Source: Candidatus Methanomethylicia archaeon
Lineage (GTDB): Archaea; Thermoproteota; Methanomethylicia; CALHIW01
Reading direction: 5' to 3'
DNA length: 64,000 nucleotides
Assembly: GCA_038845975.1 (NCBI GenBank)
Contig: JAWBQF010000002.1
Span: forward strand, 32,001-96,000
The notes beneath the pieces were generated by a model. That model was not told the DNA's origin. It was given only the letters and a program-made list of their open reading frames with translations, and ran no database searches. Below are positions 31,818 to 42,057 of the stretch, one piece after another. The position numbers and the translations under genes are program-made. Positions within the stretch are counted from its first letter, which is position 1. The number at the start of each line of letters is the position of its first letter.

Positions 31818-32729
31818 GTGATAAAGGTGTCTACAGCAAATATTAAGTATGAAGATAAGGTTGAAATACTTAGTCATCCATGCCTCTCAGATAAGGCGCA
31901 TTTTAAGTATTCACGTGTCCACTTGCCTTTAGCTGTTAAGTGTAATATTCAATGTAATTATTGTAGAAGAGGAATTAATAAGAGTATTATTAGACCTGGA
32001 TTGACAGCTAGAATACTTAGTGTTAATGAGGCTGTAAGCTATGTTGATGAAATTGTGAAAAGAGATATTAGACTTAAAGTTATTGCTGTAGCTGGACCTG
32101 GTGAGCCGTTATACAATAGGGAGACTTTTAATACTTTAAAAATAATTCATGAAAAATATCCTGATAAGATTATTTGTATAGCTACAAATGGACTTTCCTT
32201 ACCTGAAAATATAGAAAGGCTTAAAAGCATTGGTGTAAAAACATTAACAATAACCATTAACACTATTAATCCTGAAGTTGCTTCTAAAATATATGAATAT
32301 GTAATTATTAACGGTAAAAGGAGGAATGATATTGAGGCATATAGGGTTTTCATATTAAACCAGCTTAGGGGATTAGAGGCGGCAGTTAATGCTGGAATAA
32401 CTGTTAAAGTAAATACGGTGTTAATACCTGAAGTAAACATGAATCATGTAGTTGAAGTAGCTAGAAAGACTGCTGAGCTTGGAGCATACATTCAAAACAT
32501 AATACCTCTAATTCCACTATATAGATTTAGAAGACTTAGAACACCAACATGTGGGGAGCTTAGATTAATTCGTGAAGAATGTGAGAAATATATTAGACAG
32601 TTTCGTCTATGTAAGATGTGTAGAGCTGATGCTTACGGTATACCTGGATTAGAAAGTAGCTACGTAAGCACACTATATAAGAACTACATGCTACTATTAC
32701 ATGCTGGATATAGATCATTCCACGGCTAA
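31818..32729 (+). CDS. nifB: NifB-like radical SAM protein, single domain (no NifX domain)
   Basis: HPC, CNIQCNYC, AGPGEPL, KVNTVLIP, CKMCRADA. Confidence 0.88.
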   Translation: MIKVSTANIKYEDKVEILSHPCLSDKAHFKYSRVHLPLAVKCNIQCNYCRRGINKSIIRPGLTARILSVNEAVSYVDEIVKRDIRLKVIAVAGPGEPLYNRETFNTLKIIHEKYPDKIICIATNGLSLPENIERLKSIGVKTLTITINTINPEVASKIYEYVIINGKRRNDIEAYRVFILNQLRGLEAAVNAGITVKVNTVLIPEVNMNHVVEVARKTAELGAYIQNIIPLIPLYRFRRLRTPTCGELRLIREECEKYIRQFRLCKMCRADAYGIPGLESSYVSTLYKNYMLLLHAGYRSFHG

Positions 32730-32864: not shown

Positions 32865-34337
32865 TTAGCTAATTTGCTTAGTATTCGGGTTAAGTTTTCC
32901 CTTATATGGAAGAATGCAGCCCATACCTTTATTACCGCCTAGAGGATTCTGCGGGTTTCCAAATGCGTGCATGCATTTAGCCATTACAGCTGCTCCAAGT
33001 GCTAATCCATCTTCAACAAATACAACCATATCTTCAACTTTAAGGCTTTTATAAAGGTTTAAGTCATCAATGTATTTAAGGATAATTTTAGGTTTAAATC
33101 CTGTTATACCTGCTCTACCAGTAATTCCAATACTGTATTTTTCAGATATTATTCCACTAGATATTAGAATTTCAATTATTCTTTTTACAGCTATTGATTG
33201 AACGAAATCAAGAATTAATGGCATATTATTTGAGCCATAGTCTTCAATAAACTGTCTTCCAAGATCTCTAAGTTTAGGTATTTGATCACCATTATAACCA
33301 ATATCGCATCCAATAAGTAAAATATTTGCTTTAAAGGCAGCTGTTGAATTTATAGGTATCATTCCATATTTAAATACACCGGGAGGTATCTTTTCAATTC
33401 TAACATATTTATGTACTTCATTAGCTAGCTGTTCGGCAACTTCAAATTCTTCTATACTCTTAGCATTATGATGGGGGAATTCAATTACACTATCATATCC
33501 AGCTCCCTGAATAATGGAGTCACTAATAGCTCCACCTAGACCAGTTATGCTACCAATAGTTTCACCGTATGGTAGACAATCATTAATTACCCTACCTTTA
33601 AGAGTTGTTCCGAAATCCATTGTAATAACTGGATTCCTGAAATCAACATTAATCAATTTAGCACCTATCTTAATACCTGCTGTAGATAGTTCAGCCTCCA
33701 TTTCATTAGCCATTATTTCACTATAGGATTTAGGTGGTAGAGAACCGGCAATAGCTCCAGTAAATTGGGAGAGATTAAGTTTAGAGTATTCTCTAATGTT
33801 TAACGGTATATATTCCTTGGTAAGAGGAGCAATCATTCTTGATGGATGAATTTTAGCTTTTAAACATCCCTTAGCTAATGCCTTAATCATTCTACCAACT
33901 TCTTCAGGTGTATTGAAGCTTGATGTAACACCAGTAGATCTAACAACAAAGTGTATATCGTCAATACTTAAACCAGAACTAACTACTGTTTCAGTAATTA
34001 TATCTGCTATAAACTCAGCAATGGATTCTTCTGATAGTGGCTTACCCCATAGGGTTCTACTGAAAACATCTTCTCCAGCTTTAGGATTTCTAGCTTCCTT
34101 AGTTAACTTAACAGTTTTTCTAACGAGATATGTTCTACCAGTTTTTAAATCAGTAGCGGTTACAATACATTTAGTTGTAGTATTACCAAGTTCTACAGAT
34201 ACAACTATGAAGAGAGGGGGTTTGTATGTATTCTCTATACTTGATCTTTCTAGGCCTAAAATTTCACTAATACTATGGTATTTACTACGTGTAATTTTGG
34301 GATTGTATTTATCATATGGATTTCTTTTAAAAAACAA
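32865..34337 (-). CDS. Methanogenesis marker protein 14 (DUF2114)
   Basis: SVELGNTTTKCI, FVVRSTGV, NEMEAELSTAG, MDFGTTL, EDGLALGAAVMA; directly after mtrH. Confidence 0.88.
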   Translation of the reverse strand: MFFKRNPYDKYNPKITRSKYHSISEILGLERSSIENTYKPPLFIVVSVELGNTTTKCIVTATDLKTGRTYLVRKTVKLTKEARNPKAGEDVFSRTLWGKPLSEESIAEFIADIITETVVSSGLSIDDIHFVVRSTGVTSSFNTPEEVGRMIKALAKGCLKAKIHPSRMIAPLTKEYIPLNIREYSKLNLSQFTGAIAGSLPPKSYSEIMANEMEAELSTAGIKIGAKLINVDFRNPVITMDFGTTLKGRVINDCLPYGETIGSITGLGGAISDSIIQGAGYDSVIEFPHHNAKSIEEFEVAEQLANEVHKYVRIEKIPPGVFKYGMIPINSTAAFKANILLIGCDIGYNGDQIPKLRDLGRQFIEDYGSNNMPLILDFVQSIAVKRIIEILISSGIISEKYSIGITGRAGITGFKPKIILKYIDDLNLYKSLKVEDMVVFVEDGLALGAAVMAKCMHAFGNPQNPLGGNKGMGCILPYKGKLNPNTKQIS

Positions 34338-34346
34338 TACTATTCA

Positions 34347-35306
34347 CTACTTCAATAATACAAGTTTTCTGAATGGATGGTTTTCAATAGGTACTATATC
34401 TTCAAACTCGCTATGTACTGCTTCAGCAACTATGGAGTCAGCCATGGCAATAATTGGGAAGACTAGGGGAGCATTCTCAATAGGTCCATAGAGTATAAAG
34501 TTTCCACCGGTTAAAACCTGGAGAATATTGCTTGCTACATCGCATGTCTTAGCTATTTCCCTACCTTCAGAAATGGATTTTTTAACTTTTTTAAGCCACT
34601 CCCAGGCAGATACTGCGTTATGTATACCACTACCTACGGGAAGACCGAGTTTAGCTTTAATTACATAGGTTGACATTAGGGATGGCCCTGCACCGGAGCC
34701 TAATGGTAGAATAGCTACATCTATGAGTGGTTTAGATATCCCAGTTTCCTTAGCTATTTCCAGTAGTCCTCTAGACGTAACTCCTGGAATGCTCTTAGTT
34801 AATAAGTCAATTTTACCCTTAACAGTTATATCTTTAGGATTAAACGCAAGAATGATTGAGGCTTTAATTTTAAGACTATTTAAGGTTTTAATCTCTTCAT
34901 CTGTGATTGATGGATTAATAGAATTGTATATTACTTTATCAATTAATCCGATTTCAGCCGCATAATTTACTCCTTCAATTCTTGTTTTAGCATCTGTTGA
35001 ATCGACTAGAAATGGTGTTTTAGATATTGAAGATATGAAGTCTATATATTTCTTCATAGCTTCAGGAGATTCGGAGAAGACTTGTATAAGATGTGGATTA
35101 CCTGTAATATCGGATATTTCCTCCTGCTTCTTGATAAGTGATTCGGCTATAGCTTTATCGAAAATACCCTTTCTAGGATCTGAAACAATTTTATGACCTC
35201 CATAAAATATTGTACCAGCAAGAACTGTTGGATATTCTCCTGGTTGACCTCCAATTTTAACATTACCAATTTCAAAAACAGCCTGCTCCCTACTAAACTT
35301 AAACAT
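34347..35306 (-). CDS. mtrH: Tetrahydromethanopterin S-methyltransferase subunit H
   Basis: GGQPGEYPTVLAGTIFY, IYNSIN, GIHNAVSAWEWL, LYGPIE. Confidence 0.96.
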   Translation of the reverse strand: MFKFSREQAVFEIGNVKIGGQPGEYPTVLAGTIFYGGHKIVSDPRKGIFDKAIAESLIKKQEEISDITGNPHLIQVFSESPEAMKKYIDFISSISKTPFLVDSTDAKTRIEGVNYAAEIGLIDKVIYNSINPSITDEEIKTLNSLKIKASIILAFNPKDITVKGKIDLLTKSIPGVTSRGLLEIAKETGISKPLIDVAILPLGSGAGPSLMSTYVIKAKLGLPVGSGIHNAVSAWEWLKKVKKSISEGREIAKTCDVASNILQVLTGGNFILYGPIENAPLVFPIIAMADSIVAEAVHSEFEDIVPIENHPFRKLVLLK

Positions 35307-35314
35307 TAAACCAC

Positions 35315-35542
35315 CTAGATTAATCCTAATAAATACTTAAGGATAATAGTTATTATGAATCCAGATAATATACCATAAATAAAGCCAATATGCATCCCTA
35401 TCTTTAAACCTTCTCTTTGAGATATTTCACCTAAGACAAATTCTACACGTTCATCTATCATGTTTAACTTATCTATTAAAGCTTTAAACTCATCTATTGG
35501 AGCAACTGTAACAGGTATTGTTTGTATTTCATCTTTAACCAT
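35315..35542 (-). CDS. mtrG: Mtr subunit G
   Basis: IDERVEF..EISQREG..IG..YG plus TM helix; operon position. Confidence 0.9.
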   Translation of the reverse strand: MVKDEIQTIPVTVAPIDEFKALIDKLNMIDERVEFVLGEISQREGLKIGMHIGFIYGILSGFIITIILKYLLGLI

Positions 35543-35550
35543 TTAACCAC

Positions 35551-35754
35551 CTACAAGTAGTGAAGTATAAGCCCAAATAATATAAGTGAAATAGTAATAC
35601 CTACTACAAACCCCTTAACAATTCCTGCATAAAAACCGGAGGCAAACCTTGTTTCACGACCAATCATCATAATTCTAGTTTTAATATCTGATATTCTAGC
35701 CTCAATTATGGATGTTTCAGCAGTATATATTGATTTATCCAGTTTATTAGACAT
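35551..35754 (-). CDS. Small Mtr stalk subunit in the mtrF position; sequence resembles the C-terminal anchor of canonical MtrA
   Basis: ETSIIEARI..I.T..MIG...RF.SG.YAG.V.G plus TM helix. Confidence 0.8.
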   Translation of the reverse strand: MSNKLDKSIYTAETSIIEARISDIKTRIMMIGRETRFASGFYAGIVKGFVVGITISLILFGLILHYL

Positions 35755-35758
35755 TTCA

Positions 35759-36496
35759 TCACCATATTATCGTTAAGAGTAGGGTAATGTATAGTAGAAG
35801 GGAGATTAATATACCTATCGATACGCCTAAACCTCTTAAATAGGTAATAGCGCTTGTAAGTCTAAGTGTTCTACCTAGAATTTGAACTCTATACCTAATA
35901 TCTTCAAGAAGCTGCTGAGCATTATCGATTACTGGATTTATAGATCCAGCTAGTGGAATTCTTACAGTAATGGGTTTAGCTATAGCCTCCTCAACCTTAA
36001 TGATTAATGGATCAGCAGGATATGCACCTGGATTCCTTAAGGCAAGATCTTCTATTGTTTTCCTTATTATATTTAAATCCTCAACATTAATAAGATTTAC
36101 AAGCTCTACTTGACTTCTAAATCTCTCAATAGCTTCAGGAGTTAAATGTTCAACGAAAGGTATAGCACCAGGTGCATTTTTAATTTTCTTGCTTTCATCA
36201 ATACCGTTCCTCCATAAAGCCTCAATACTTCCACCAGTAACATGACCAGTAACTTCTACTCCACATATTACTAGAAACCTAATATTAGGGTTTGAAATAA
36301 TGTTTGCAATCATCTTCTCAATTCCAATATTTTCGGTTTTACATGGACCAGCTATTGCAACACCAGGTATTGAAGCTACCTTCTTTACAAGTGCTTCACT
36401 AGATAATAGACATACTGCAACAGGTGCTTTAGGATCTGAAACTATAAATTCACCAGTTACTATAGGCCATTCCTGAGCAGGTTCAACCTTACTCAT
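35759..36496 (-). CDS. mtrA: Mtr subunit A corrinoid domain with an MtrF-like C-terminal stalk
   Basis: GPCKTENIGIEK, SNPNIRF, EVTGHVTG (Co-ligating His); tail EDIRYRVQILGR..RL. Confidence 0.93.
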   Translation of the reverse strand: MSKVEPAQEWPIVTGEFIVSDPKAPVAVCLLSSEALVKKVASIPGVAIAGPCKTENIGIEKMIANIISNPNIRFLVICGVEVTGHVTGGSIEALWRNGIDESKKIKNAPGAIPFVEHLTPEAIERFRSQVELVNLINVEDLNIIRKTIEDLALRNPGAYPADPLIIKVEEAIAKPITVRIPLAGSINPVIDNAQQLLEDIRYRVQILGRTLRLTSAITYLRGLGVSIGILISLLLYITLLLTIIW

Positions 36497-36500
36497 ACAT

Positions 36501-36809
36501 TTACCCTCTTAAGGAGATAAATAGGATAATTAAGCTGAAAACAAGAGACCCAATAAGAAAGCCTAAAGCAATATTACTGAGTAAACCTATACTTCTATAT
36601 AGACCGTTTCTACCAGGTCTTGAGGATACTAGTGGAGATGATTTTGGATTAAGAGATAGGAGAAGTTCTCTTGATAGAAGGTCAAGCTCATCAATAATTT
36701 TGTATAAAGGAGATAAGTTTAAGTAGGCTACATCAGATCTAGATTCTCCAATAAGCTTATAATCTTCATCAAGTACTATATTTATTCTAGAAGATATCAA
36801 TATCGTCAT
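36501..36809 (-). CDS. mtrB: Mtr subunit B
   Basis: L..SLNP...S.PGR.G plus TM helix; ATGA overlap with mtrC. Confidence 0.88.
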   Translation of the reverse strand: MTILISSRINIVLDEDYKLIGESRSDVAYLNLSPLYKIIDELDLLSRELLLSLNPKSSPLVSSRPGRNGLYRSIGLLSNIALGFLIGSLVFSLIILFISLRG

Positions 36810-37624
36810 TCTAAACCACCTCTACCAGGTATACCTGTCCATAGAGTTGAAGCTGCTTCTCTTCTACATGCATTGTAGAGGCTTATTAATCCATAAATCC
36901 ATATTAATCCCCCAATAGCGATCATTATTATTGCCTCATTAACCATCCATGGCCTTCCAAGTATTCCAGCATTTCCAAGCCTTACAATACCGGATAAACA
37001 TATTGTTACACCGGAAGTTACAGTAGCTATTCTTAAAGTTCTACCCTGCCTTTCATCAGCACCTAAACCTGCATTAAATGGATGGAATATGGCTAATGTT
37101 GAAGCCCAATATATAGCTGCAATAAATCCAGTCCAAAATAATGCTTTAACAACATCATCATTTAAAAAACCATTAAAAACCATCGGTAATAAATCGGTTT
37201 TAGCAACCCCTACTACTAAACATGTAAGTGTTAGGTACCCAGCTAGGGATAACTCAGTAATTAGTCTTGGAAAGTGAGGTATTTTAAGTATTTTAAGCCT
37301 TGATATTATAACGCCAAATATAAAGCCTGTAGCTGCAGCTATTAATACACCTAGTATTGGGCTATACTTTAATCCTACAAGAGAGGAGAGAATACCTATA
37401 CTTACTGAGAGATTACCTATTGATGGAACACCCGTACCTAAACCATAGGATGCGATTCTCCTTACAGTATCAGCTCCCCAAATAATCGATGGAATAGCGA
37501 GTATTGCTGCTAGAGATGGTATACCTAGACATATACTGAGTAAACTTAAAACTATAGCTATAACTGCTAAATAGCTGGAGCTTACTGAAATCCTTTTCTC
37601 AGTTAATACACTAATATGAGTCAT
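36806..37624 (-). CDS. mtrC: Mtr subunit C
   Basis: WGADTVRRIASYGLGTGVPSIG, HPFNA..RTL. Confidence 0.95.
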   Translation of the reverse strand: MTHISVLTEKRISVSSSYLAVIAIVLSLLSICLGIPSLAAILAIPSIIWGADTVRRIASYGLGTGVPSIGNLSVSIGILSSLVGLKYSPILGVLIAAATGFIFGVIISRLKILKIPHFPRLITELSLAGYLTLTCLVVGVAKTDLLPMVFNGFLNDDVVKALFWTGFIAAIYWASTLAIFHPFNAGLGADERQGRTLRIATVTSGVTICLSGIVRLGNAGILGRPWMVNEAIIMIAIGGLIWIYGLISLYNACRREAASTLWTGIPGRGGLE

Positions 37625-37633
37625 AAAACCACC

Positions 37634-38389
37634 TTACAGTATAAACAATAATGTAATACATCCAAAAACTATTGATGCTAGAAAACATGCTAAAGCGGTT
37701 CTCGGAGTATTCTTAAATTTCGGATCCCACCATCCCTCTATAACACCTCTAATCGCATAAGCTGTAATGTTTGCATTGATTAGAAACATTCCAAGTGCTA
37801 TAGTAGCTGCAATAACAATACTTGAAAGAACATTACTACTAGATACTTCAATTAGCTGTGAAAATATAGCTTCTATAGATGGTGTTAAACCTAAGGCTTT
37901 AATTACTAATAGTCTAAATACCGGTATAAAAGTTAATGCTCCACCAAGCCCACCTAGAAAGGCTCCAATAATGCCACTTATAAAGCACGCTGTTGGAATA
38001 CCGTGACCAGTTGTACCTGGTGTAATGTAGATTTTAACATTTTCACCAGTTATTGGATCCTTCTCCCTCGTATATAATGCTGGAGGAACACCACGTCCAT
38101 AAACAGCTAGGAAGTTACATATTAACATTACTGTTGACATCATTATAGCTGAGCTTAAACCTGCATTAACCATAACTATTAATCCATTCTCTCTAAACAA
38201 TACTGCTGACATTAAAATGCCTGTAATTCCGGATCCTGTAAGCATCATTTCAGCGCCTGTAGCGATTCCAGTTGAGGTAAACATAGCTGCTGGAGCTCCA
38301 CCAATAGGTAGAAGCATAGTACCAATGGAGATTAAGATACCTGCAATAGCTATAGCTATTAGGATAATTATCAGTATGAGGAAATCCAT
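37634..38389 (-). CDS. mtrD: Mtr subunit D
   Basis: GGAPAAM, DPITG..YITPGTTGHGIPT, IEGWWDPKFK. Confidence 0.95.
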   Translation of the reverse strand: MDFLILIIILIAIAIAGILISIGTMLLPIGGAPAAMFTSTGIATGAEMMLTGSGITGILMSAVLFRENGLIVMVNAGLSSAIMMSTVMLICNFLAVYGRGVPPALYTREKDPITGENVKIYITPGTTGHGIPTACFISGIIGAFLGGLGGALTFIPVFRLLVIKALGLTPSIEAIFSQLIEVSSSNVLSSIVIAATIALGMFLINANITAYAIRGVIEGWWDPKFKNTPRTALACFLASIVFGCITLLFIL

Positions 38390-39336
38390 TACTTCCCACC
38401 TTCCAGCTTAATATTCTCCATGTATGGTCCAAACTTTCTACGAGCCCAAACCTCAATCCATCTATTAACTAGGAAAAGCATAAACACTATTACTAACCCT
38501 ATACATACATTTAAAAATACTTGCCCATATATATTACCTAGAAATATTCTAAAATTATCAAATAGTAGAATTAATCCGTAACATAAGCCAGCCATCATAC
38601 TACCATACTTAGTACAGAACCATACAGTATCAATACTATTCCTCCAGCCAAGTTCAGCTTTAATAGTTATATTTCCATAATACTTTGTAGATACACCCTC
38701 TCCATAAACTGTATGCTGGTAAAGTCTTTCACCACCATAGTGAGTATCACCTGTAGAAGATCCTATTGAACCGGAAATAATTCCAAGCATTAATGTAAGC
38801 ATTGGAATTGCTACTGGATAGCCTATATATCTACTAATATCAGCATTAAAGATAATGCTTGTTGAGGCTGTATACATTATATATGATATTGTTAAAATGG
38901 TTAGCGTAACCATGAAACCATGAGTACCTATCAACGGTAAGTGGCTTACTAGAACGTCAATATATATTGGCTGCCCAAATCTTCTCTGACTTGTTATTCT
39001 ACCTAGATAAGCTGTAGTAGCAAACGTCATATGGAATAGTGTTGTTAAACCACATGATAAAGGTATTGAAATTAATGGATGAATATTCCATCCAAGCCAT
39101 AAAGCTACAAAAATAGTTCCTGCAGTCATACACCACATACCATTCGATACAGGCTCCCCAGATATAGCCTTATTGAAAAATCTATGTATAGTACCTACTT
39201 GCGGTGCAAGCTGTACTTGAGAATTTGGATTACTTTGAGAACCTATATCGGATTCTGCATCCTCAAACCATCCAGCAATAGTAATTAAACCTACAATTAA
39301 TGCTAATACTCCAATAGCTATTAATATAGGCTCCAT
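38389..39336 (-). CDS. mtrE: Mtr subunit E
   Basis: ESDIGSQSNPNSQVQLA, NKAISGEP, SSTGDTHYG; TAATG overlap with mtrD. Confidence 0.96.
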   Translation of the reverse strand: MEPILIAIGVLALIVGLITIAGWFEDAESDIGSQSNPNSQVQLAPQVGTIHRFFNKAISGEPVSNGMWCMTAGTIFVALWLGWNIHPLISIPLSCGLTTLFHMTFATTAYLGRITSQRRFGQPIYIDVLVSHLPLIGTHGFMVTLTILTISYIMYTASTSIIFNADISRYIGYPVAIPMLTLMLGIISGSIGSSTGDTHYGGERLYQHTVYGEGVSTKYYGNITIKAELGWRNSIDTVWFCTKYGSMMAGLCYGLILLFDNFRIFLGNIYGQVFLNVCIGLVIVFMLFLVNRWIEVWARRKFGPYMENIKLEGGK

Positions 39337-39504: not shown

Positions 39505-40647
39505 GTGGATGGATTAAGTCTATATAGGAATATAGTTGATCTATGTGTTAGCTGTAGATGTGGGAAATGCTTAGATTCATGTCCAATATATAGAGTTGTA
39601 AGAAGGGAGATGGTAAGCCCTAGAGGGAAGCTGAAAGTAATACATGCATACCTTAAAGGGGAAATTTCTCCTTCAGAAAGCTTACTGGAAAGCATAGCGT
39701 ACTGTACCTTATGTTTAGCCTGTGAAGTCAACTGCGGGATAAATAGGTTAACAAGCATGCATATAAGTATGAGTAGGATAATACCCTCCTTTAGATGGGA
39801 GCTTATAAAGAATGGTTATGAGCTTCCACAATATAAATCTATTATAGATGCAGTATGGAAGACTGATAATATATTTGGTGATGTTAACCATAAGTCTAAA
39901 CAGCAAATTCATAGTGGAGATGTTGAAGTTATTTATTGGTCTGGTTGTGTAGCATCAGTTAGGAGAAGAAATATAGATATATCGATAAGCAGTATTTTAA
40001 GTAAGCTTAAAGTAGATTTTAAATCATTAAATAATTTATGCTGTGGATACCCATTATATCAGATAGGTTACTGGAAGGATTTAGAGGCTATAATCGATAA
40101 AAACATGGAAGTCATTAGGAGACTGGATTCGAATACTGTGGTTAGTAGTTGTCCAGCATGCATAGGGTTTATTAGAGATTTTTATCCTAAAATAGTTGAG
40201 GGAAAACTACCGTTTAGGGTTAAGCATATTTCTGAAGTATTTCAAGAATATGTTGAAAGCGGAGATTTAAAGCTAAATTTTGAGGATAGAGATATAGCTG
40301 TAGCTTATCATGATCCATGCCATTTAGCTAGATACTTAAATATTTATGATCAGCCTAGAAATATCTTAAAGAATATGAATATCAATCTTATAGAAATGGA
40401 GAAGAACAAGTTAGAAACTGAATGCTGTGGTGGTGGGGTTAGGTTAGTATTACCTGAATTATCAACAACAATCGCAGCTCAAAGAATTCTTACAATACCT
40501 AAGAATACAAATTACCTATTAACATCATGTCCAACATGTACGATAAATCTAGGTGATGGAGTAACTATTGCTAAGGTGCTTTACGATTTTAATACTGACG
40601 TTAAGGTTATGGATTTAGCTGAATTTATTTGTCAATTCATAAAGTAA
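39505..40647 (+). CDS. HdrD/GlcF-like Fe-S protein (two [4Fe-4S] motifs + two CCG domains)
   Basis: C..C.CGKC...CP, CTLCLAC...C, CCG..SSCPAC, YHDPC..CCGGG..TSCPTC. Confidence 0.9.
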   Translation: MDGLSLYRNIVDLCVSCRCGKCLDSCPIYRVVRREMVSPRGKLKVIHAYLKGEISPSESLLESIAYCTLCLACEVNCGINRLTSMHISMSRIIPSFRWELIKNGYELPQYKSIIDAVWKTDNIFGDVNHKSKQQIHSGDVEVIYWSGCVASVRRRNIDISISSILSKLKVDFKSLNNLCCGYPLYQIGYWKDLEAIIDKNMEVIRRLDSNTVVSSCPACIGFIRDFYPKIVEGKLPFRVKHISEVFQEYVESGDLKLNFEDRDIAVAYHDPCHLARYLNIYDQPRNILKNMNINLIEMEKNKLETECCGGGVRLVLPELSTTIAAQRILTIPKNTNYLLTSCPTCTINLGDGVTIAKVLYDFNTDVKVMDLAEFICQFIK

Positions 40648-40650
40648 AGT

Positions 40651-42057
40651 TTAGAAAAATATTCCAGGATTTAAGATGCCCCTCGGATCCAAAATATTCT
40701 TAATTTTCTTTAAGATTTCATAGCCGTATCCTAACTCCATAGGTATCATGTCCTTAGCATCTATTTTTACACCCATAGAGTGAGATATTGAGCCTCCAAG
40801 CTCTAAACCTACTTTAAGCATTTCTCTTATAGCTTTAATATAAATAGGATACTTCTCCCTATTTTCCTCATCAACCCTATAGAAGAAGTCAATATACATT
40901 GGATCAAGCTTTAATATAAGAGCACCAAGAGGCTCAACATCATATGTTTTAAGGATACTGTAGAGTTTATCTAATGCCTTCTTTACGTTTATTAATGGTA
41001 TAGCTATATCTATACATCCCCAGCCACCCTTACCTGTTGCTGCTAGAGCTGAGTAAAAATCTGAAGTATAGCCTGAAATATATTGAACAACTTCACCACT
41101 ACATATTTCCCCACCGAGACTTAGACATATCTTTAAAACCTCATTTCTAAGTAAGCTGTAGATTTCACTATTGTATCCTATGATATCTACTAATACAAGT
41201 ATGTTTGATAATGGTATTTTAGATCCGTAAACCATTCTCCTATGTTGATTAACTGCAACTTCATCCCAGACTGTAAAACAAGCTATAGGTAGATTTTTCT
41301 TCTTTATTTCATTAGCTAATTTAAGTGCATCATCAATACTGTTAAAAGCTATTAGAATACTATCCTTAACATTAGGCTTAGGATATATTCTTAATGTTGC
41401 CTCTGTTATTATTCCAAGTGTTCCACATGTACCTATAAATAGCCACTTCAAGTTAAAGCTTGAAGATGACTTCCTAATCTTACCTGAAGTTCCTCCACCA
41501 ACATTAAGAATATTTCCAGTAGGTAAAACTACTTTAAGACTTGAAATACGGTCACCAATAGATCCGTAAACCATTTGCAATCCATCAACTCCACAGTAGG
41601 CTATAGAGCCACCAATTGTAGCAGCATATCTACTTGCTGGAAAATGTGGAGGTATATAGCCCTTCCTTTCAAGTTCATATGCTAGTCTAGCACATGTTAT
41701 TCCGGCTTCACATGTTACATACATATTCTCCTCATCAATTTCAATAATTCTATCCATTTTCCTCAAGTCAATAACTATACCGCCATATCTTGGAATTGCG
41801 CAACCACTTATCCCTGTAAGCCCACCTACAGGTGTTATTGGAATTAACTTCTCATTAGCTAGCTTAACAATCTCACTAATCTGAGCAGTATTTTCAGGAT
41901 AGACAATTAATTCAGGAGGCTTAAACCTAGGATATGGCTTATAGAAGTCTTTAACATAACATAATAAATGAAAACTCTCCCTTAAAACATTTTCTTCACC
42001 TACAATTCCAGCAATTCTCCTAATAGCCTCCTCATCTACACGATTATAATACTCCAC
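40651..42057 (-). CDS. FAD-linked oxidoreductase (GlcD / VAO-type fold)
   Basis: GGLTG..G, ATIGG, GTCGTLGIITEA, DPRGILNPG. Confidence 0.88.
   Translation of the reverse strand: MEYYNRVDEEAIRRIAGIVGEENVLRESFHLLCYVKDFYKPYPRFKPPELIVYPENTAQISEIVKLANEKLIPITPVGGLTGISGCAIPRYGGIVIDLRKMDRIIEIDEENMYVTCEAGITCARLAYELERKGYIPPHFPASRYAATIGGSIAYCGVDGLQMVYGSIGDRISSLKVVLPTGNILNVGGGTSGKIRKSSSSFNLKWLFIGTCGTLGIITEATLRIYPKPNVKDSILIAFNSIDDALKLANEIKKKNLPIACFTVWDEVAVNQHRRMVYGSKIPLSNILVLVDIIGYNSEIYSLLRNEVLKICLSLGGEICSGEVVQYISGYTSDFYSALAATGKGGWGCIDIAIPLINVKKALDKLYSILKTYDVEPLGALILKLDPMYIDFFYRVDEENREKYPIYIKAIREMLKVGLELGGSISHSMGVKIDAKDMIPMELGYGYEILKKIKNILDPRGILNPGIFF

Follow-up and report, generated by a model that had tools for sequence, protein, structure and literature searches.

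The DNA analyzed here is a stretch of 64,000 nucleotides (nt) from Candidatus Methanomethylicia archaeon (assembly GCA_038845975.1, contig JAWBQF010000002.1, positions 32,001 to 96,000 of the forward strand), referred to below as the window, and all coordinates are window positions. It holds an operon for Mtr, the complex that carries out the sodium-pumping, energy-conserving step of methanogenesis and that runs in reverse in ANME-1 methane oxidizers. The list of open reading frames (ORFs) and their Pfam matches placed eight closely spaced genes on the minus strand in the order mtrE-D-C-B-A-(67-aa gene)-G-H. Two of these are the subject of this work: mtrA, a 245-aa ORF at 35759–36496, and the 67-aa gene at 35551–35754, which sits in the slot of mtrF. 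An earlier inspection of the DNA letters (hereafter the sequence-only reading) had proposed that the B12 domain of this MtrA is fused to an MtrF-type helix and that the MtrA anchor has been split off as the 67-aa gene, and both ORFs are present on the minus strand and carry the sequences that it quoted. The results described below indicate that the two membrane anchors have probably been swapped, i.e. that the corrinoid head is carried by an F-type helix, that an orthologue of the MtrA anchor is encoded by a separate 67-aa gene and that the two helices have exchanged roles.

The Pfam assignment of the six other genes, all on the minus strand, was unambiguous: mtrE (38389–39336, 315 aa, Pfam MtrE 323 bits), mtrD (37634–38389, 251 aa, Pfam MtrD 218.4 bits), mtrC (36806–37624, 272 aa, Pfam MtrC 159.1 bits), mtrB (36501–36809, 102 aa, Pfam MtrB 60.1 bits and TIGR04166 62.5 bits), mtrG (35315–35542, 75 aa, Pfam MtrG 67.2 bits and TIGR01149 61.3 bits) and mtrH (34347–35306, 319 aa, Pfam MtrH 416.4 bits). 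As both mtrB and mtrG encode stalk helices, and an A-type and an F-type helix are also present (see below), all four stalk helices are kept, as the sequence-only reading had stated. The 67-aa gene starts 4 nt past the stop codon of mtrA, and a GGTGA word ahead of its ATG resembles a Shine-Dalgarno sequence and is a putative ribosome-binding site.

The 245-aa protein consists of a corrinoid head, a linker and a membrane anchor. The head (residues 1–171, 35984–36496) matched Pfam MtrA (PF04208) over residues 3–171 with 229.4 bits and contains His85, which is part of a GHVTG motif and is invariant in a 16-row MtrA alignment; His84 is the cobalt ligand in solved MtrA (PMC10998594; this and the other papers are cited here from the accessible parts of their text). 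The genome (76 contigs, 2.77 Mb, 93% complete) holds one MtrA head only, and a search for a second mtrA thus returned none. The linker (residues 172–184, 35945–35983), delimited by alignment and motif counts, differs from that of canonical MtrA in its IPLA motif and in being less acidic: in MtrA of this type, the conserved KVEE stretch is followed by an IPLA-P motif and then by the F signature, and the junctions lie in the linker. The anchor (residues 185–245 and the stop codon, 35759–35944) matched Pfam MtrF (PF09472) over residues 185–237 with 44.6 bits (E 9e-12, cut-off 22). When the isolated tail (residues 176–245) was scored, it reached 50.1 bits with the MtrF model NF009776 (below the cut-off of 64) and 37.0 bits with the MtrF model TIGR02507 (cut-off 25), and it did not match the mtrA model TIGR01111 at E≤1. 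In the Protein Data Bank (PDB), the tail found MtrF chains only (8q3v_F, 29.6 bits; 9qtp_P, 25.5 bits). The tail further contains the DIxYRxQ..GR signature of MtrF, and residues G208 and G224 of the 245-aa protein occupy the alignment positions of the MtrF kink glycines, G28 and G44. The full-length protein scored 244.8 bits with the TIGR01111 equivalog model, just below the cut-off of 249.15, which is the effect expected of a foreign tail. A search with the 70-aa tail among small proteins gave a single candidate, a 58-aa fragment of an MtrA tail of the same clade (P0138).

To these library models we added our own hidden Markov models (HMMs) of the A-type and F-type anchors, trained separately on loci of the Methanobacteriaceae type (14 loci), of the Methanothrix type (5 loci) and of Methanomicrobiales (9 loci). 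The MtrF and MtrA-anchor signatures that the sequence-only reading had given agree with the consensus lines obtained from canonical A tails and canonical MtrF. Although the classification of the training groups is in part given by how the models were built, the cross-order scores and the rows labeled "other" are independent of it, and across orders the models separate A tails from MtrF: with the models trained on Methanobacteria, Methanothrix A tails scored 47.1 (A) versus 19.8 (F) bits, and Methanothrix MtrF scored 5.1 (A) versus 51.0 (F) bits. In the three model pairs, the tail of the 245-aa protein scored 30.6, 32.1 and 37.3 bits as F versus 5.4, 2.3 and 4.1 bits as A. Conversely, the 67-aa ORF scored 52.2, 49.5 and 42.1 bits as A versus 27.9, 23.3 and 13.3 bits as F. 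Separate scoring, which the sequence-only reading had suggested as a check, therefore assigns the tail to F and the 67-aa ORF to A.

The assignment of the 67-aa ORF bears directly on a published account, in which mtrA lost its anchor and was fused with a duplicate of mtrF, the small gene that follows is the original mtrF, and the stalk would contain two F-type helices and no A-type helix. This account is in the wording of Mei et al. (2023, PNAS Nexus, PMC9982363), and it agrees with the position of the small gene in the F slot and with its Pfam MtrF match of 31.1 bits, which clears the cut-off of 22. However, every F model gave the 67-aa ORF a lower score than the A-anchor models did. It aligned to positions 185–238 of TIGR01111, the C-terminal 54 positions of the mtrA model, with 45.5 bits (E 6.5e-12), compared with 32.9 bits for NF009776 (cut-off 64) and 24.7 bits for TIGR02507 (cut-off 25), and it thus does not fit MtrF better than the other stalk helices; a curated stand-alone model of the MtrA C-terminal anchor was not found in the libraries searched. 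Solved MtrA chains were likewise matched ahead of MtrF chains: the best PDB matches were residues 184–235 of Methanothermobacter marburgensis MtrA (8q3v_A, 36.1 bits) and residues 185–237 of Methanosarcina mazei MtrA (9qtq_A, 35 bits), and the solved MtrF chains reached 22.5 and 18.8 bits. In alignments, the small protein begins roughly where canonical MtrA has its acidic linker.

Database searches with the small gene gave the same assignment. A phmmer search with the 67-aa ORF against 1.84 billion cluster representatives returned 16 matches, comprising 4 small kin proteins (67–72 aa), 11 proteins or fragments with canonical MtrA C-termini and 1 unrelated protein of 1184 aa; canonical MtrF was not among them. 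Beyond its own kin and apart from the unrelated protein, the small ORF hence finds only MtrA C-termini, which argues against the small gene being the original mtrF. The 11 MtrA-type proteins include five with a Pfam MtrA head and six with TIGR01111 C-terminal matches of 52–125 bits (two of these six also bear the head), and two of the 11 are chimeric-looking and end in an MtrA tail of the Methanobrevibacter type. Three of the cluster representatives (P0125, P0126 and P0127), in which unrelated N-terminal sequence precedes an anchor of the Methanobrevibacter type, are probably chimeras of assembly or gene calling. In a reciprocal whole-genome test with a model of 21 small ORFs, the best match in each of three canonical methanogens was the MtrA C-terminus (Methanoregula, 55.6 bits in a frame of 246 aa; Methanothrix, 49.4 bits, 242 aa; Methanobacterium, 48.8 bits, 239 aa), and MtrF appeared only as a second match, in one genome, with 33.7 bits. 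Together with the topology tests described below, in which a topology that unites the small ORFs and the fused tails was rejected, these results make it very unlikely, in our view, that the stalk combines two F-type helices.

To place the window among other genomes, 80 loci named from species-representative genomes, 7 from its own class and the window itself were taken as sources (88 in all), of which 71 gave an operon row; the other 17 were lost because the head lay on the opposite strand (L010), because the heads had no anchor or because mtrG was out of reach. The segments compared were the last 62 residues of each head-bearing ORF and each ORF between mtrA and mtrH. An F-type mtrA tail was found in 26 of the 71 loci, all 26 with the swapped layout: 5 from the window's own class, 13 from ANME-1/Methanophagales, 2 from Methanoliparia and 6 from metagenome-assembled genomes (MAGs) with other labels. 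The small ORF was A-type in 25 of these 26 loci, and in the exception (L026) an overlapping frame had been picked in ORF calling. The tail was A-type in the other 45 loci, 42 of which have an F-type small ORF; the remaining three are one Methanocella locus with F on a second head and two loci, L041 and L055, without a gene between A and G. In the latter two, both from "Methanobacteriota archaeon" MAGs (L041, 2995–3975; L055, 2983–3972), the A-type tail is followed directly by mtrG, the F slot is empty and the A tails also have unusually high scores with the G model. A sixth locus of the window's kin, L010, was read by eye and has the identical layout.

The survey also bears on the simplest account of the locus, namely that this is an ordinary canonical operon with a divergent MtrA anchor followed by a divergent MtrF, and that the cross-resemblance is noise among short paralogous helices. 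The order and sizes of the genes are indeed canonical, the full-length mtrA model aligns over residues 2–239 and one of the topology tests described below did not reject positional orthology. Yet the differences amount to 20–35 bits per model, run in opposite directions for the two genes and recur in three independently trained model pairs, and 25 of 26 loci show the reciprocal pattern. The TIGR01111 score just below the cut-off and the rejection of positional orthology in three later tests add to this, and a plain canonical operon appears extremely improbable.

Outside the surveyed loci, the tails of the 120 best MtrA homologues from a search of 5.8 billion proteins were F-type in 56, A-type in 62 and neither in 2; P0038, a 245-aa homologue, has a C-terminal helix that neither the A-type nor the F-type models fit. 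The small gene was detected in 11 of 401 sampled genomes of the window's phylum, where the strong matches all lay in short frames (66–152 aa) and the second match, where listed (7 of the 11 genomes), was a weaker match to the upstream fused tail. In the phylum to which the ANME-1 locus belongs, 220 of 401 sampled genomes had a match to the small-ORF model. Among the matches listed, those of 54 of the 401 genomes were strong (at least 104 bits), all in frames of 62–144 aa, and the weaker ones (43–65 bits) lay in frames of about 240–308 aa with a few short frames (84–129 aa), some of them at the start of their contig. Thus, the layout is common in public genomes (26 of the 71 surveyed loci, and 11 of 401 and 54 of 401 sampled genomes in the two phyla), which the sequence-only reading had listed among the observations that would count against its proposal. 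One further locus, in a Methanobacteriaceae MAG (L058, 160–1017), is not part of a normal mtr operon and has an MtrB-like ORF and, after it, an MtrA head of 183 aa without an anchor.

The relationships of the helices were then analyzed by phylogeny, with two spurious overlapping ORFs (L008_small_2166 and L026_small_3588) excluded from all trees. A first, quick tree was built from a MAFFT-auto alignment of 128 non-redundant A, F and G helices. In this tree, the window tail fell in a set of 50 rows (Shimodaira-Hasegawa-like approximate likelihood ratio test, SH-aLRT, 98) made up of 30 small ORFs, 19 fused tails and the A-F tail of Methanocella, and the G helices formed a well supported group of their own. 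A second set was aligned with L-INS-i and restricted to A and F helices, 89 rows being thinned to 34 by a 62% identity filter within groups. The unconstrained 34-row tree had the swap topology, with a support of 99/99 for the branch between A and F, and in it the 67-aa ORF did not group with MtrF, nor the tail with canonical MtrA anchors, which is the grouping that would have contradicted the sequence-only reading. In approximately unbiased (AU) tests on the 34 rows under LG+G4, positional orthology was 37.9 log-likelihood (lnL) units worse and was rejected (p-AU 0.0017), and so was lineage-specific duplication, in which the two helices of each lineage are joined (38.4 lnL worse, p-AU 0.0007). 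Under LG+C20+G4, the corresponding p-AU values were 0.0056 and 0.020. When 30 G rows were added, a single clade of all small ORFs was again rejected (p-AU 0.009 under LG+G4 and 0.007 under C20), with supports of 85.1/97 for the F-type split and 100/100 for the G split.

Several observations weigh against the swap, and they should be set beside these results. The 67-aa ORF does clear the Pfam MtrF cut-off (31.1 versus 22 bits), which shows that anchors of the A and F types are plainly homologous and in part ambiguous. The first AU test, on the 128 rows, did not reject positional orthology with all small ORFs in one clade (p-AU 0.338, delta lnL 10.2), and with G included the A-type split had modest support (SH-aLRT 87.5, ultrafast bootstrap 64). 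The helices provide only about 60 alignment columns, and the groups for the later topology tests were named after the HMM results were known. Finally, in such complexes known from sequence alone, similarity could reflect constraints other than position. In a tree of the head domains (36 rows), the 16 heads with F-type anchors fell on one side of a branch with an SH-aLRT of 91, which fits one origin of the layout. The deepest split in the 34-row tree separates the two layouts in the A and F subtrees alike, which fits either direction of the exchange.

Parts of this layout have been described previously. Mei et al. (PMC9982363) print a TACK-type operon, EDCB[AF]FGH, with the [AF] fusion as the sole mtrA, for the clade of Thaumarchaeota, Aigarchaeota, Crenarchaeota and Korarchaeota (TACK), Methanoliparia and ANME-1, and they omitted F and G from their trees because of the short length of these subunits. 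Both the fusion and where it occurs are already known, and the architecture is not, as the sequence-only reading had supposed, without a description. The window belongs to this type: it has the same gene order, a single mtrA with an F-type anchor, a small gene and then G and H, and its MtrA head groups with the TACK, Methanoliparia and ANME-1 heads. The difference lies in the identity of the two helices, since the accessible text of that paper names the fused part an mtrF duplicate and the next gene mtrF, whereas here the next gene tests as an MtrA anchor. A literature search, with most subscription journals outside it, found no paper that treats the small gene as an anchor of the A type, and the identification of this gene as an MtrA anchor rather than a second F, together with a headless core, seems not to be in print.

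Two other kinds of MtrA variant resemble the arrangement in part. The MtrA-2 fusions (A-F in Methanococcales and Methanocella arvoryzae, A-G in Methanomicrobiales) also join an MtrA head to another stalk helix, and in the accessible text of Wang et al. (2015, PMC4632066) they are always second copies beside mtrA-1. That known fusions accompany an intact mtrA, as the sequence-only reading had stated, was borne out in our survey by nine of nine Methanomicrobiales loci and one Methanocella locus. Unlike these fusions, which stand beside an mtrA-1 with its own anchor, the fusion here has no other mtrA beside it, and the A anchor is kept as a gene of its own. Anchorless, Mtx-like MtrA homologues paired with MtrH-like genes have a homologous corrinoid head but differ in that they have no membrane helix and are encoded away from the mtr operon; an example is the kin locus L012, in which a 211-aa head is encoded beside an MtrH-like gene.

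MtrA paralogues with A, F or G anchors are also mentioned in a paper on Connectase (PMC7980362). In the window, the place of the canonical MtrA Connectase motif KDPGA is occupied by RNPGAYPADP (residues 154–163, 36009–36038), which lies inside the head, and among 56 F-type MtrA homologues only the 3 closest relatives share the N that replaces D. Connectase (PF09894) was not found in the genome of the window nor in any of five kin genomes, and the start of the small protein is without a PGA acceptor sequence; Connectase was therefore dropped as an explanation of a mobile head.

The solved complexes allow the conserved residues to be read in terms of position. Like the canonical complexes of M. 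marburgensis (8Q3V) and M. mazei (9QTQ and related entries), the Mtr of the window has eight subunits, the histidine ligand, four single-helix stalk subunits and the A- and F-type signatures, but the head is on the F-type helix, the A-type helix is headless and the two segments that encode these helices follow each other in the opposite order. In M. marburgensis, the four stalk subunits are single long helices; the MtrA anchor (MtrAc, residues 178–238) forms a three-helix core on the threefold axis with layers at P185, A188, A192, N196, T199 and M203, and MtrF lies outside the core with MtrB and contacts helices I and VI of MtrE (PMC10998594). In the same structure, MtrA and MtrF pair through their N-terminal segments in a short beta-sheet (PMC10998594), and in M. 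mazei the vestibule is closed at the membrane border by three MtrA Phe210 residues (PMC12774963). The 67-aa protein, which is homologous to residues ~184–238 of canonical MtrA, aligns A12, S15, A19, D23, T26 and M30 to the core layers (3 of 6 identical, the others small or conservative) and F37 to the Phe210 seal. F37 is nearly invariant in the 21-row family of small ORFs from TACK, ANME-1 and Methanoliparia, which has 6 invariant and 8 nearly invariant columns. Because the core-layer and Phe seal residues are kept in the small protein, and the F signature and kink glycines in the tail, we infer the positions of the two helices in the complex, and with them its stoichiometry and function.

The operon would then encode a complete TACK-type Mtr complex in which none of the four single-helix stalk subunits is missing and two of them have exchanged roles relative to the solved euryarchaeal complexes. 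The cobamide-binding head would be made in one chain with the MtrF-type helix, and the MtrAc orthologue would be a separate protein of 67 residues that takes the core position of the stalk without a head, while the B12 head would swing from the peripheral F position, beside MtrB and MtrE. We propose that the complex tolerates the exchange because, at the cytoplasmic tip of the stalk, MtrAc and MtrF have adjoining N-termini, so that the tether point would shift little. The sequence-only reading of a mobile head hanging from F and of the A helix as a headless micro-subunit thus stands at the level of sequence, and the structural places are likely ones suggested by the solved complexes. A prediction of a homotrimer from three copies of the 67-aa protein with the 21-row alignment scored 0.02 against a mark of 0.42, in a run without controls, and counts neither for nor against such a trimer. 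Alternatively, the orthology may be as described but the helices may have left their ancestral places, for example with the head-bearing F-type helix in the core or with a stalk that is packed differently. The solved structures cover the canonical type only and the linker of the swapped type differs, both of which leave room for such a rearrangement; the residues that mark the core and the seal in the small ORF, the kink glycines in the tail and the conservation of the small-ORF family across TACK, ANME-1 and Methanoliparia speak against it, and we consider it unlikely. As for how the layout arose, a single transposition, which either placed the F-coding segment between head and anchor or did the opposite, would account for the observed gene order, and a possible history is that a soluble head became joined, in separate events, to a different stalk helix in each of the two deepest Mtr lineages.

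In its genomic context, the operon is complete, but searches for McrA (PF02249) and McrB (PF02241) in this genome, which is 93% complete, gave no match. McrA is present in three of five kin genomes of family f5; some Bathyarchaeota and lineages related to them have been described as carrying Mtr but not Mcr (bioRxiv 10.1101/2021.08.02.454722). The window genome belongs to a separate family within its class, and in this, and in that no McrA or McrB was found in it, it differs from the described carriers of EDCB[AF]FGH. Immediately downstream of mtrH lies a gene for a DUF2114 protein (32865–34337, minus strand), and a radical SAM protein gene is found near the operon (31818–32729, plus strand). 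Upstream of the operon, a gene for a CCG/4Fe-4S protein adjoins one for an FAD-linked oxidase (39505–40647, plus strand, and 40651–42057, minus strand).

As a single locus, the operon is ordinary within its clade, and the layout is clade-wide and was partly published in 2023. We are somewhat inclined to extend the interpretation to the whole TACK/ANME-1/Methanoliparia type of Mtr, in which the gene printed as "mtrF" would be the orthologue of the MtrA anchor, the core would be a trimer of a free peptide of ~65–72 residues and the head would have the peripheral F helix as its tether. If so, the small gene is misnamed in annotations (NCBI and Pfam call it F), and phylogenies of concatenated MtrA and MtrF that are paired by position mix non-orthologous helices. 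In both solved complexes, the B12 head hangs from the central MtrA helix. If the head is instead on the peripheral F helix in a deep branch of Mtr that includes ANME-1, models of head shuttling between MtrH and MtrE would need another tether point, and the attachment point of the head would not have been fixed in the evolution of Mtr.

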